Positions 2,196 through 5,125 of a DNA stretch of 5,284 nt are shown here, one piece after another. The first letter of the stretch is position 1. Each line of letters begins with the position of its first letter. This DNA comes from Escherichia coli (GTDB lineage: Bacteria; Pseudomonadota; Gammaproteobacteria; Enterobacterales; Enterobacteriaceae): NCBI RefSeq assembly GCF_036507355.1, contig NZ_AP027882.1. One strand, written 5' to 3'. The notes beneath the pieces are model-generated. The model had not been told where the DNA came from and ran no database searches. It saw only the letters and a program-made list of their open reading frames with translations. Both the position numbers and the translations under genes were made by a program.

Positions 2196-2201
2196 TGATT
2201 A

Positions 2202-2229
2202 GTGACAACGTGTTGTTTTAAGGTATAAG
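2202..2229 (+). promoter_or_regulatory. Candidate rep promoter (GTGACA, 16-bp spacer, TATAAG)
   Basis: GTGACA at 2202-2207 and TATAAG at 2224-2229. Would give a leader of roughly 140 nt before the rep start, consistent with leader-based control of ColE2-type rep genes. Pattern-based only. Confidence 0.3.
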
Positions 2230-2373
2230 TTTAACGGCAGAAAAAACAAAGCCCCGGCAATCATGAGCTATCTTGGCGGATGAGCATGACTACCAGGGCC
2301 AGGTACAAAACCTTGAAAGGATATTAGCACATGAACTGTGCCAGACAACAGCCCGCCATAAGCGCAGGGCGCT

Positions 2374-3270
2374 TTGAGTAACGCCGCACTCGAACTATTC
2401 AACGAACGCTTGCCGCACAAGCCGTACTTTTCGGACGATTTGCACTTTGGTGTACGCATTGCCGGCAAGGAACGCGCCATTCTGGCGAAATACATCCAGT
2501 TCAATCAGCCTCATGCCATGTTCTGGCTGGGATTCGATGTTGATCGCGCCGGTGCCGCTATTGACTGGAGTGACCGCAATGCTCCCGCGCCCACACTGAC
2601 CATCACCAACCCCGAAAACGGACACGCGCATCTGCTGTACGCGCTAAAAACCTCGATACGCACAGCGCCGGACGGAAAAATGAAGCCGCTGCGCTACGCT
2701 GCCGCCGTGGAGAACGCGCTACGTAAAAAATTAGAGGCTGACGCGGGGTATTCAGGGTTAATCTGCAAAAATCCGAACCACAGGCACTGGAAAATTGCCG
2801 TGTGGCAGCCGGAACTCTACACACTGGACTGGCTGGCCGATTTCCTTGACCTGAACGCTGCGAACGATAAAGAAATCGTTGCCGACTACGGATTAGGCCG
2901 TAACTGCACCTTGTTCGACAAAACCCGAAAATGGGCTTATCGTGCTATTCGTCAGGGCTGGCCTGAGTATGGACAATGGATGCTAGCTTGTGTTGAAAGA
3001 GCTACAGCTTACAACATGCAGTTTTCAGCACCATTAGATGAAAAGGAGGTCATAAGTATAGCGAAGAGTATATCTAAATGGACATATTCTAAATTCACAC
3101 AGCAATCTTTCGATGAATATGTTAAGAAAACACACTCAGCTGAATGTCAGAGTATAAGAGGGCGCAAGAGCTCTGGCGGAGGGCGGCCAAAAATAAGATC
3201 TGAGGAGTGGGTCTCTCTAGGTATTAGTCGCGCTACGTGGTATAGGAAGCACTATAAAAATGAAAATTAA
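2374..3270 (+). CDS. rep: ColE2-type plasmid replication initiator (Rep, primase-like replicase with PriCT-like and C-terminal HTH regions)
   Basis: 298-aa ORF starting at TTG 2374, with an in-frame stop at 2359-2361 just upstream. Translation (..ERLPHKPYFSDD..FDVDRAGAAIDWSDRNAPAP..NGHAHLLYAL..YSGLICKNPNHRHW..GLGRNCTLFDKTRKWAYRAIRQGWP..) follows the conserved blocks of ColE2-family Rep as I recall them. C-terminus has a basic tract and an HTH-like WVSLGISRATWYRK. Base composition switches from GC-rich to AT-rich near 2950. Confidence 0.85.
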   Translation: MSNAALELFNERLPHKPYFSDDLHFGVRIAGKERAILAKYIQFNQPHAMFWLGFDVDRAGAAIDWSDRNAPAPTLTITNPENGHAHLLYALKTSIRTAPDGKMKPLRYAAAVENALRKKLEADAGYSGLICKNPNHRHWKIAVWQPELYTLDWLADFLDLNAANDKEIVADYGLGRNCTLFDKTRKWAYRAIRQGWPEYGQWMLACVERATAYNMQFSAPLDEKEVISIAKSISKWTYSKFTQQSFDEYVKKTHSAECQSIRGRKSSGGGRPKIRSEEWVSLGISRATWYRKHYKNEN

Positions 3271-3916
3271 GATGTATGTCTTGTCTTTGTTTTTTTTGTT
3301 TATACCAATAATTTTTTATTTTTCTGGTATTGATGATGTCTGGAACGTTTTTACCAAAGCTAATGGTTTTTGTGATGGCGTCAGTAATCGTATTGTCTGT
3401 ATAACAGGTAATATGGGCAACCAGCTATCTCTATCCGTGTCAAGGTTATGCGTTTGTATTTTTTTGGTCTTTTTGTGTGGCTATACTTACTGGTGGTATA
3501 AGAGACAGCTTTCATTTTTGGATAGGGGGATTACCTCTGCCGAAGTGGTTGTTGTTGGATGCGAAAAAGAGTCAACTGAGTATCTGTCATTTTTGTCAAC
3601 TTACATAATGCCCCTGGTTTTTACAGACTTAACAAAACCTTCAAATGTTTTCAATTTCATTTTTATTCTAGTTATTGTCGGATTTCTTCATATAAAAACA
3701 AGAAGGATTCATAGCAACCCAACGCTTTCATTGTTTGGTGTTTCTGCTTACAAAATTGACTATATAATCAGGGTTGATGGTCAGGATTCTGATATCACAA
3801 AAGGATTGATTGTCCTGTCGAAGGATGAGATATCTGTGAAAAGTGTAATTCGAATCATAAAAAAAGAAGACTACATTACATTCGCAAAATACATAAGGAA
3901 CGATTCAAATGGCTGA
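3260..3916 (+). CDS. Multi-pass inner-membrane protein, unknown function (about 4 predicted TM helices plus a roughly 70-aa soluble C-terminal domain)
   Basis: 218-aa AT-rich ORF. Hydrophobic segments at about aa 5-23, 57-80, 108-121 and 129-145, followed by a charged tail. ATG 3260 overlaps the rep stop (3268-3270); AGGAAG at 3244-3249. An alternative in-frame ATG is at 3272. Confidence 0.7.
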   Translation: MKIKMYVLSLFFLFIPIIFYFSGIDDVWNVFTKANGFCDGVSNRIVCITGNMGNQLSLSVSRLCVCIFLVFLCGYTYWWYKRQLSFLDRGITSAEVVVVGCEKESTEYLSFLSTYIMPLVFTDLTKPSNVFNFIFILVIVGFLHIKTRRIHSNPTLSLFGVSAYKIDYIIRVDGQDSDITKGLIVLSKDEISVKSVIRIIKKEDYITFAKYIRNDSNG

Positions 3917-5054
3917 AGAAAAACTGGATTTAAGCGAGCTCCATCATGACGCGCAGAAGGCCTCTGAGCTCTCATCCTATTACTCCCACTTCGATACAAA
4001 GGTAGAAGATTTTGACCTTCATGTATATTTTAACTTTAGGCATAAGATAAAGGGCGGTGATGGAAAGTACCGTTACGAATATCGGGTTGCAAAAATAGAT
4101 GATACTACTGTTCTGAAAGAATCAATCAAAGATAACGTGATAACAAAAACCCTTAATGATCTAAGTAGCGGTAGAGTTGCAGTATCTGATATAAAGCAGC
4201 TTAGTGATAGGGCTAGCACTATATCATTTTTAGAAGATGCAAAGTCATACAAAGATGAACAGATGTCTTTTTTGACAGGTATTATTTTTGATAAGGGATT
4301 TGGAGGTGATGGGGATATTCCTGTCGTCAATTTTGAGAAGTTTGATAAAATATCAAAGGTTGACTCAATTGTTTTTGTCTTAAGGAAAGGTGATAAATGT
4401 ATAACAATATACAAAAAACAGTATCCTATACAGAACCTGACCAAACAGAAAAATCATTACTTCTCATATAGCAAAGATACGTTATCAAAAATAGATGCTG
4501 ACATGATATCAATTGATGGAAAAGCCTCTATTGTTTTTGTTAAAGGTACTGCATATATCTATGATCAGGATGTTTTTGAGAAATTTTTCGGATACAAGAA
4601 GTGGATAAAAAAAGTTGCGGGCGAATTTGTTTCTGAAATGAAGCAAAAATTTTCATCGATAGTAGACTTTGGAAAAGTTACCGACAGGCTTGAAAAAGAA
4701 AGTGCTGATGCAGATGCCTTTTCAAGGAAACTGGCAAGAATATATAACAATAAAGATCTAAGAGCTTCCTTTAATACTGTTACACCAGAAAAAATCAGTG
4801 ATTTTTTAGTTGAAAATGAGTATTTCGCTAGATTGCTAAAGTACAAATCAGCGGAAGAACCTTTAGAAGTATCAACCCATGATCAGCAGGAAGCATTTAT
4901 ATTAATAGTTTCTGAGGGCGTTCTTCGCTCGCTTATTACTGGTTTTGATTATTTAAGCCCTGCCGCGAAAAGAAAAATTGCGACAGGCCAAACCGCGCAA
5001 AAACCTTCTTCTGTAGTAACTAGGATACCCTCCAGCGCATCTGACGCCGCCTAA
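3909..5054 (+). CDS. Hypothetical 381-aa soluble protein, unknown function; candidate effector or sensor partner of the upstream membrane protein
   Basis: Long AT-rich ORF with AAGGAA 8 nt upstream. ATG 3909 overlaps the upstream stop (3914-3916) in an ATGGCTGA junction. No Walker, HxH, nuclease or other motif recognisable by eye. Ends just upstream of a strong hairpin plus T-run. Confidence 0.8.
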   Translation: MAEEKLDLSELHHDAQKASELSSYYSHFDTKVEDFDLHVYFNFRHKIKGGDGKYRYEYRVAKIDDTTVLKESIKDNVITKTLNDLSSGRVAVSDIKQLSDRASTISFLEDAKSYKDEQMSFLTGIIFDKGFGGDGDIPVVNFEKFDKISKVDSIVFVLRKGDKCITIYKKQYPIQNLTKQKNHYFSYSKDTLSKIDADMISIDGKASIVFVKGTAYIYDQDVFEKFFGYKKWIKKVAGEFVSEMKQKFSSIVDFGKVTDRLEKESADADAFSRKLARIYNNKDLRASFNTVTPEKISDFLVENEYFARLLKYKSAEEPLEVSTHDQQEAFILIVSEGVLRSLITGFDYLSPAAKRKIATGQTAQKPSSVVTRIPSSASDAA

Positions 5055-5077: not shown

Positions 5078-5125
5078 CCTATATCAGATAACAGCCCTCT
5101 CTAAGAGAGGGCTGTTTTTTTTGCA
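5078..5125 (+). other. Candidate ColE2-type replication origin element
   Basis: TATCAGATAACAGC at about 5081-5094 matches the core of the ColE2 ori as I remember it (recall, not search), and is followed immediately by the hairpin and T-run. It lies about 1.8 kb downstream of rep, not directly after it. Confidence 0.4.
5091..5122 (+). terminator. Rho-independent terminator-like hairpin with T-run closing the rep-cargo operon
   Basis: Perfect inverted repeat ACAGCCCTCTC (5091-5101) / GAGAGGGCTGT (5105-5115) around a TAA loop, followed by eight T (5115-5122). Read directly from the sequence. Confidence 0.65.

Follow-up and report, generated by a model that had tools for sequence, protein, structure and literature searches.

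The closest described systems to the element treated here are the repC–repB–repA region of IncL/M plasmids (pMU604; compared here via pOXA-48, locus L048), repBA with its RNAI from the IncB plasmid pMU720, and repYZ with its Inc RNA from the IncI-alpha plasmid ColIb-P9, which correspond to the Rfam family RF01089 (PK-repBA). In I-complex plasmids, expression of repA needs the leader peptide gene repB, whose translation is inhibited by the antisense RNA RNAI (PMC10286972). For IncI1 and IncB plasmids, the part of PMC8053102 that cites Asano & Mizobuchi (1998) and Praszkier & Pittard (2002) adds that the antisense RNA also precludes formation of a pseudoknot indispensable for repZ translation. 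In ColE2-like plasmids, rep is controlled post-transcriptionally by an RNAI that binds to the 5' untranslated region (PMC6856555). Here, we analyzed the rep leader and promoter region at 2202–2381 of a DNA sequence from Escherichia coli (NZ_AP027882.1; 5,284 nucleotides, nt), which is referred to in its full length as the window. The window is a complete mobilizable plasmid of 5284 bp, of which 841 nt that were queried are 100% identical to NZ_OP242216 (E. coli). The region 2202–2381 is probably the replication-control cassette of a Col(Ye4449)-type ColE2-type replicon and, judged from its sequence, would work like repBA and repYZ of the I-complex and IncL/M plasmids. Translational coupling to a conserved 16-codon frame, together with a pseudoknot between the loop of a leader stem-loop and a distal element, would account for the TTG start codon of rep and its poor ribosome site.

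The rep Gene Has a TTG Start Codon and a Conserved Promoter

A blastn search with the leader matched 365 PLSDB records, and 34 distinct versions of the leader were compared as relatives. These comprise 11 plasmid loci (including pMUT2 of E. coli Nissle and loci from Yersinia, Edwardsiella, and Moellerella), genome contigs that were reached via Rep, and two loci with other initiators; some tallies refer to 35 rows since pOXA-48 was added.

The rep open reading frame (ORF) extends from TTG 2374 to 3270 on the plus strand and is preceded by an in-frame stop codon, TAA, at 2359–2361. As the initial annotation had stated, TTG 2374 is the only start codon behind this stop, since the four intervening codons (GCG CAG GGC GCT) include no ATG, GTG, or TTG. 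The start assigned by PGAP/RefSeq in NZ_CP071392 is identical (locus position 3015, corresponding to 2374 of the window), and Rep residues 2–18, which are conserved among the relatives in an N-terminal alignment, would be lost if translation began at the next in-frame TTG at 2410. Across 35 rows (the 34 relatives and pOXA-48, which has a GTG), the rep start codon is TTG in 24, GTG in 7, and ATG in 4 cases, the latter from Xenorhabdus. The assignment of the gene product as a ColE2-type Rep, which had been based on its N-terminus, was confirmed by the Pfam domains Replicase (PF03090, E = 2.2e-45) and PriCT_1 (PF08708), by a match of the C-terminal domain to PDB entry 3VW4 “Rep” (E = 2.8e-24), and by the conservation of the N-terminus. 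In the N-terminal alignment, six plasmid-derived relatives are 66–93% identical to the Rep of the window, and homologues on genome contigs are 54–95% identical. A short Shine–Dalgarno (SD)-like sequence, AGGG, is located at 2366–2369, 4 nt before the rep start. It had been described as weak; however, its computed duplex with the anti-SD sequence (–5.1 kcal/mol) is about as stable as that of the leader-frame SD described below (–5.4 kcal/mol), and the handicap of the rep start lies in the TTG codon and the 4-nt spacing.

The rep promoter consists of a –35 box GTGACA (2202–2207) and a –10 box that can be read either as TATAAG (2224–2229; 16-nt spacer) or as TAAGTT (2226–2231; 18-nt spacer). It is the top plus-strand candidate in 2150–2300 upon re-scoring with a simple script, and the pattern nnGACA-15/16-T(G/A)TAAn is kept in 29 of the 34 relatives, while the spacer sequence diverges. 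A consensus scan with a threshold of 9/12 calls neither this promoter nor the antisense promoter described below, both of which reach 8/12. An operator-like inverted repeat in the promoter spacer (ACAAC-GT-GTTGT) was considered and discarded because it is inconsistent across the relatives. The 5' end of the rep mRNA is predicted at about 2236–2239, and the conserved promoter therefore implies a leader of about 135–138 nt, in good agreement with the roughly 140 nt that had been estimated from a promoter at 2202–2229. The region 2196–2373 does lie upstream of rep, as its designation as rep leader implied, but part of it is itself a reading frame of 16 codons (2331–2381).

A 16-Codon Leader Frame Ends on the rep Start

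This leader frame opens with ATG 2331 behind the SD sequence AAAGGA (2316–2321), which is located 9 nt before the ATG and aligns with AAGGAU of the Rfam PK-repBA consensus. It encodes MNCARQQPAISAGRFE and ends with TAA 2379–2381, so that the stop codon begins at +5, counted from the initial base of the rep TTG, and the frame overlaps rep. An ATG in the aligned column followed by 15–17 codons, mostly 16, was found in 33 of the 34 relatives; the frame is missing only from L044, where a 173-kb contig carries a truncated remnant of rep. The position of the leader stop relative to the rep start is +5 in 32 and +1 in 2 of the 35 rows, one of the latter being pOXA-48. Insertions and deletions within the frame are compensated, namely +1 followed by –1 in L002, L009, and L011, +1 and +2 in L040, and +3 in L003, and where a +1 is uncompensated (L046), the stop has moved to an ATGA overlap. 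The sequence of the leader peptide drifts, and conservation is confined to the frame and the point where it ends. A 34-codon TTG ORF at 2273–2377, likewise terminating on the rep start, served as a control and is retained by just 3 of the 34 relatives. No other start codon with a strong ribosome-binding site was found for rep; the strong ribosome-binding site with ATG that is present 43 nt upstream of the rep TTG serves this separate, very short frame.

Leader Stem-Loops and a Predicted Antisense RNA

Stem-loop I of the rep mRNA (2251–2299, plus strand), the presumed antisense target, was identified from folds, covariation, and an arm-swap test. Its loop carries UUGGCG at 2273–2278, which as TTGGCG is invariant in all 34 relatives, and all 30 distinct versions form the hairpin. 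RNAalifold, when applied to the MAFFT leader alignment A2, yielded only six spurious pairs, because insertions and deletions in the length-hypervariable upper stem misalign the arms; it was replaced by hand-specified pairs on the same alignment and by the arm-swap test. For stem-loop I, 93.1% of the cells are paired, a value that none of 500 column shuffles attained and that compares with 27–48% in slid controls. Compensatory changes occur at the column pairs 24:66 (GC 27, CG 6, AU 1), 31:59 (CG 26, UA 4), and 32:58 (AU 28, GC 6). The arm-swap test needs no alignment and combines every 5' arm with all 3' arms; in it, cognate arms gave –24.1 kcal/mol compared to –19.7 ± 0.6 kcal/mol for permuted arms, and none of 20000 permutations was as low as the cognate value; relatedness inflates this contrast, but its direction is clear. 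Stem-loop II (AGGU/ACCU, 2301–2313, plus strand) is paired in 95% of the cells and shows no compensatory changes, so that its support is conservation only. Stem-loop III (GCAC(A)/(U)GUGC, 2327–2341, plus strand) encloses the AUG of the leader ORF and has moderate support, with 82% of the cells paired and one compensatory change (103:113, in L012).

On the opposite strand, a promoter-like site is predicted at 2348→2321, with a –35 box TTGTCT (2348→2343), a 16-nt spacer, and an extended –10 element TGc plus TAATAT (2329→2321). It is the top minus-strand candidate in 2440→2230 upon re-scoring with the simple script. Among the 34 relatives the –10 box reads TAATAT in 26, TAAACT in 4, TATAAT in 2, and TAGTAT and TAAGAT in 1 each, with T1, A2, and T6 present in all; the –35 TTG is kept in 33, the 16-nt spacer in all 34, and TGn in 31. 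The corresponding antisense RNA is predicted from fold, promoter, and terminator to be about 74 nt long, with a start at about A2314 and an end at 2241. Its fold comprises a small hairpin at the 5' end (2313→2301) and a long one (2300→2250) with the loop CGCCAA, followed by UUGUUUUUU (2249→2241), and the long hairpin with this U-run is a predicted intrinsic terminator. The built-in terminator scan misses it because the stem is imperfect. The fold of 2316→2236 has an energy of –32.2 kcal/mol (z = –4.25), a stability that none of 200 shuffles attained. In each of the 30 versions, the antisense hairpin exceeds its sense counterpart in stability by about 6 kcal/mol, since C·A mismatches of the sense strand become G·U pairs in the antisense strand. 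The initial annotation had proposed folding and promoter prediction on this strand and had noticed neither the promoter-like site nor the hairpin with U-run (2300→2241), both of which these predictions now provide. It is conceivable that a weaker promoter located upstream gives rise to a longer antisense RNA.

The Loop of Stem-Loop I Can Pair With an Element in Front of rep

The element CCGCCA at 2353–2358 (plus strand) is the complement of UGGCGG at 2274–2279 in the loop of stem-loop I and ends 15 nt before the rep TTG. A loop–distal helix of 5–9 bp can be formed in all 35 leaders, and its 3' end is always located 14–17 nt, mostly 15 nt, before the rep start. In the window, the energy of the pseudoknot duplex is –12.2 kcal/mol. 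Both sides of the helix change concordantly among UGGCGG:CCGCCA in the window, GGCGAG:CUCGCC in L005, UGGCGAGCG:UGUUCGCCA in L003, and UUGGCCGG:CCGGCCAA in the IncL/M plasmid pOXA-48, and the column pair 49:133 occurs 28 times as GC and twice as AU. A hairpin at 2351–2372 (“SL-IV”) that would sequester the rep start was also tried and rejected, as its two registers are paired in 77% and 61% of the cells, show no compensatory changes, and do no better than shuffles.

The Cassette Is Collinear With IncL/M and I-Complex Control Regions

An Rfam scan at relaxed threshold matched PK-repBA (RF01089) to 2249–2363 on the plus strand over the full model, with 35.8 bits and E = 2.8e-5. The gathering threshold of this family is 45 bits and is reached by pMUT2 (50.4), Edwardsiella (47.9), Xenorhabdus (45.4), and L003 (60.4). 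Since three of these are ColE2-type relatives, the family of the leader is PK-repBA by the Rfam criterion, although the copy in the window falls short. A CopA (RF00042)-like match on the minus strand (2328→2244; 28.2 bits, E = 0.056) does not reach the gathering threshold of 60.

pOXA-48 and the window are collinear over stem-loop I with UUGGC(C)GG, stem-loop II, AAGGAU-N9-AUG, the 16-codon frame, and, in the 3' part, the distal complement, the 15-nt distance, and a rep start other than ATG that the leader stop overlaps. Stem-loop I carries UUGGCG in its loop in the window and UUGGCC in IncL/M; the motif UUGGCG is named in the title of Asano et al. (1998). In pOXA-48 the rep start is GTG, with a GTGA overlap and the stop at +1, whereas in the window it is TTG with the stop at +5. 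The pseudoknot helix of the window has 6 bp compared with 8 bp in IncL/M, which corresponds to a concordant loss of 1 nt on each side. Common to IncL/M, the I-complex, and, by its sequence signals, the window is an antisense gene opposite stem-loop I whose hairpin serves as its own terminator. The window differs from these systems in being a 5-kb mobilizable replicon with a putative ColE2-type ori downstream that scores below the Rfam cut-off. Its initiator is also different, as it is a primase-type Rep with Replicase and PriCT_1 domains, whereas behind the same cassette in L003 stands an IncFII_repA-type protein. We take RepA and RepZ of the I-complex to belong to the same Pfam family IncFII_repA, a reading that was checked for L003 only.

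The CopA–CopT–tap system of R1 and IncFII plasmids resembles the window in that an antisense RNA faces a stem-loop of the rep leader, rep is coupled to a short leader (tap in R1), and the antisense loop carries CGCCAA. We know of no description of an activator pseudoknot in R1. The text that cites Blomberg et al. (1992) attributes control in R1 to CopA blocking the translation of tap.

Proposed Mechanism of rep Control

The cassette is collinear with the I-complex and IncL/M regions, and we therefore assign their mechanism to it by homology; this applies to both transcripts, to the requirement for leader frame and pseudoknot, and to the antisense mode of action. The rep mRNA would begin at about 2236–2239, and ribosomes would load at AAGGA and ATG 2331 and translate the 16-codon frame up to TAA 2379–2381 on top of the rep TTG. 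As it passes or terminates, the ribosome would open the region of about 2351–2372, whereupon CCGCCA (2353–2358) could pair with UGGCGG (2274–2279) in the loop of stem-loop I to form a pseudoknot 15 nt upstream of the TTG. Termination beside the start codon and the pseudoknot together would permit initiation or reinitiation at the otherwise poor rep start. The antisense RNA of about 74 nt (2314→2241) would be made constitutively, at a level that tracks copy number, and would kiss the loop of stem-loop I via CGCCAA before pairing fully. This pairing would take the loop away from the pseudoknot, and the resulting duplex, which would end 2 nt from the leader SD, would hinder translation of the leader frame. 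At higher copy number, less Rep would thus be synthesized and replication would be reduced.

Several points weigh against this assignment. All evidence considered here, for the plasmid as for its close relatives, was obtained in silico, and the RNA ends are predictions. The PK-repBA score of the window itself (35.8 bits) is below the gathering threshold of 45, and the fold of the whole leader is not more stable than that of shuffled sequences (z = –0.56). By analogy with “structure III”, a hairpin hiding the rep start would be expected, but neither of its registers is supported by covariation. The 5' half of the leader frame, i.e. its first six codons, overlaps the antisense promoter elements, so that part of its conservation has another cause. 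Within the ColE2-type set, most pseudoknot positions are invariant, and the covariation rests on L003, L005, and IncL/M; in the ColE2-type loci L002, L015, L020, and L029, which have a GGCGAG loop, the change is uncompensated and the helix is reduced to 5 bp. Furthermore, in Pseudomonas ColE2-related replicons the leader-peptide gene can largely be deleted with replication retained (PMC5304414).

The most serious alternative is control of the classical ColE2 type, in which the antisense RNA alone blocks Rep synthesis, the short ORF and the loop–distal complementarity are idle, and rep uses its own weak site. Rep is of the ColE2 type, as is the putative ori, and control by RNAI binding to the 5' untranslated region is what has been reported for ColE2-like plasmids (PMC6856555). 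It was in this sense that antisense control had originally been proposed for the window. Col156-type leaders, which match 1119 PLSDB records and were represented here by L036/L047, L034, and L039, allow a direct comparison; Col156 is the type of ColE9-J (PMC6856555). These plasmids (ColE2-P9, ColE3-CA38, and ColE9-J), class C theta replicons with a primase-type Rep, an RNAI (IncA), and a small ori 3' of rep, share with the window the Rep family, the ori motif, and the promoter, and in their leaders the base of stem-loop I (AAACAAAcGCCCC...GGGGCG), stem-loop II, the SD, and the ATG column are homologous; their best minus-strand promoter candidate, predicted as TTGAAG-16-TACGAT, is found at the same aligned place. 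Yet in Col156 the aligned ATG is the annotated rep start directly behind the SD, and leader frame, distal CGCC, and TTG are missing, so that these leaders manage without a leader frame, whereas in the window ATG 2331 opens the 16-codon frame and the rep TTG follows 43 nt further on. The 10-nt top of stem-loop I is an exact reverse complement between the two (L036 1101–1200 compared to window 2241–2333), with UCCGCCAAGA in the mRNA of Col156 and UCUUGGCGGA in that of the window; in Col156, UUGGCG would thus sit in the antisense RNA and not in the mRNA. The ColE2-P9 RNAI is reported to be about 115 nt long, which is at odds with the 80–85 nt or so that we predict for the Col156 leaders.

Against classical control speaks that the 43 nt beyond the rep ATG position of Col156, with the frame, CCGCCA, and the overlapping stop, are extra in the window-type leaders and are kept in frame by compensating indels. 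In addition, 60 nt lie between the predicted antisense RNA and the rep TTG downstream of it, a distance too great for the start to be occluded directly, and the leader is homologous to a family that requires coupling and pseudoknot. We therefore regard classical control as unlikely. Of the original proposal, antisense control is supported in silico by the antisense signals, the covarying hairpin arms, and the ColE2-type Rep; its ColE2 kind is not, as the architecture is unlike that of Col156 leaders and the TTG appears to be served by leader frame and pseudoknot.

It could also be that 2321–2348 is conserved only as the antisense promoter, that the short ORF is incidental, and that the antisense RNA acts mainly by having the rep mRNA in the duplex cleaved or degraded, as RNase III could do, and not by a block of translation. 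The overlap of the promoter elements with the first six leader codons fits such a scenario, and a long perfect sense–antisense duplex would be a substrate of RNase III. However, the promoter overlap leaves unexplained why the frame is conserved beyond 2348, why its stop is fixed on the rep start, and why CCGCCA keeps its 15-nt distance, which makes this scenario distinctly improbable. Transcriptional attenuation of the pT181/pIP501 type, in which antisense binding would cause a terminator to arise in the nascent mRNA ahead of rep, might be suggested by the long structured leader with its several hairpins but is highly improbable, as the plus strand of 2236–2373 contains no hairpin with U-run and the only terminator-like sites that the scan reports on this strand lie within rep (2408–2422).

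The Cassette Also Precedes Unrelated Initiators

Control by leader frame, pseudoknot, and antisense RNA, as preferred here, is a known kind of device, and all of its elements are of known kinds, so that no new mechanism is revealed; less usual, as it appears, are the attachment to a ColE2-type primase Rep and the spread across unrelated initiators. In L003 (pKPC-e4b7, a 51-kb KPC plasmid), the cassette precedes a RepA of the Pfam family IncFII_repA, and in L005 (a 289-kb Klebsiella variicola plasmid), it precedes an unclassified RepA of 228 aa. The two cassettes (1500–1640 in each) are about 75% identical over 80 nt and collinear through leader frame and pseudoknot. The upper stem-loop CTCTACTTTGGCGAGCGGA is identical in L003, L005, and the ColE2-type loci L002, L015, L020, and L029, which suggests that the incompatibility determinant has been exchanged. 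A comparable portable module has been described as REx-C for Pseudomonas replicons (pPT23A-family ColE2-related RepA, and RepJ), where stem-loops, a putative antisense RNA, and a leader-peptide gene coupled to rep are likewise found before unrelated initiators (PMC5304414). Sequence similarity between REx-C and ColE2 control regions is not reported, and the authors argue against a pseudoknot there (PMC5304414).

One reading of these data is that the cassette is a portable Enterobacterales module that has been recombined before at least three unrelated initiators (the ColE2-type primase Rep, the IncFII_repA-type RepA of pKPC-e4b7, and the 228-aa RepA of the K. variicola megaplasmid) and that the textbook ColE2 RNAI is a shortened derivative of the same ancestor. 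In the course of this derivation, rep would have been fused to the initiation site of the leader frame, the pseudoknot would have been lost, and the target loop would have been inverted. We consider the chances of this two-part reading to be evenly balanced. If it is true, ColE2 RNAI, the RNAI and Inc RNA of the I-complex, and CopA form one homologous family, which links the ColE2 control region with the I-complex/IncFII antisense family. In our literature searches, pMUT2 was described only as “ColE2-like”, and no paper linking ColE2 to a pseudoknot was found within the searchable literature.

The proposed arrangement would account for the TTG and GTG rep starts in hundreds of small “ColE2-like” plasmids (Col(Ye4449), pMUT2, pEI1-like) and offers three unannotated features to annotators, namely the antisense RNA, the leader frame, and the pseudoknot. 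It also predicts that the upper part of stem-loop I sets incompatibility and copy number in this group, as in I-complex plasmids, which is of relevance for plasmid typing and for the engineering of pMUT2-based vectors in E. coli Nissle. Beside these loci, in a 44-kb IncX1 plasmid (L004, 1501–1640), a ColE2-type rep truncated at its 5' end (ATGGATGATTTGCAC...) follows immediately behind stem-loops I and II and the SD, and leader frame and pseudoknot element are missing.

Neighboring Genes of the Plasmid

PLSDB types the plasmid as Col(Ye4449), MOBP, and other 5284-bp records that are near-identical to it come from Salmonella and Dickeya. The mobilization genes mobC, mobA, mbeB, and mbeD occupy 11–1862. 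The relaxase ORF (303–1862; 519 aa, with a TTG start as listed) encloses, in other frames, the MbeB-like (1015–1500) and MbeD-like (1561–1797) genes, an arrangement also seen in mob regions of the ColE1 type. For this region, RefSeq gives MobC, MbeB, and MbeD, and the PLSDB feature table contains no relaxase coding sequence.

Between the mobilization genes and rep lies an ORF of 78 aa (1959–2195), which ends 7 nt before the rep –35 box, in the same position as copB in R1 or repC in IncL/M. The only 9/12 promoter match of the consensus scan (1898–1925) is located upstream of it. The ORF has no match in Pfam, NCBIfam, PADLOC, or PDB sequences and no similarity to RepC of pOXA-48. Its AlphaFold model is weak (predicted local distance difference test, pLDDT, 65) and shows an H-E-H-H-E-E order with winged-helix-like topology; Foldseek gave no matches at E ≤ 0.001, and many of the weak matches are winged-helix domains. 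That the ORF encodes a regulator of the rep promoter is only a guess.

Within rep, a terminator-like plus-strand hairpin (GCTTGCCGCACAAGC then CGTACTTTTC) at 2408–2431 covers codons 12–20, over the conserved RLPHKPYF, and may be due to chance. Downstream of rep, the Kiwa anti-phage pair kwaA–kwaB (3260–5054) is located between rep and the ColE2-type ori motif CCTATATCAGATAACAGC (5078–5095), which is followed by a hairpin and a T-run (5078–5112 overall). KwaA (3260–3916) matches PADLOC PDLC00211 (E = 1.9e-121) and KwaB (3909–5054) matches PDLC00226 (E = 1.2e-220) as well as Pfam KwaB; RefSeq annotates a KwaB-like protein only. Because the Kiwa genes are inserted here, the ori motif lies 1.8 kb past the rep stop, compared to about 6 nt in Col156 plasmids, and several relatives carry other inserts of 0.5–1 kb. 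Judged by eye, the Kiwa segment appears to be AT-rich.

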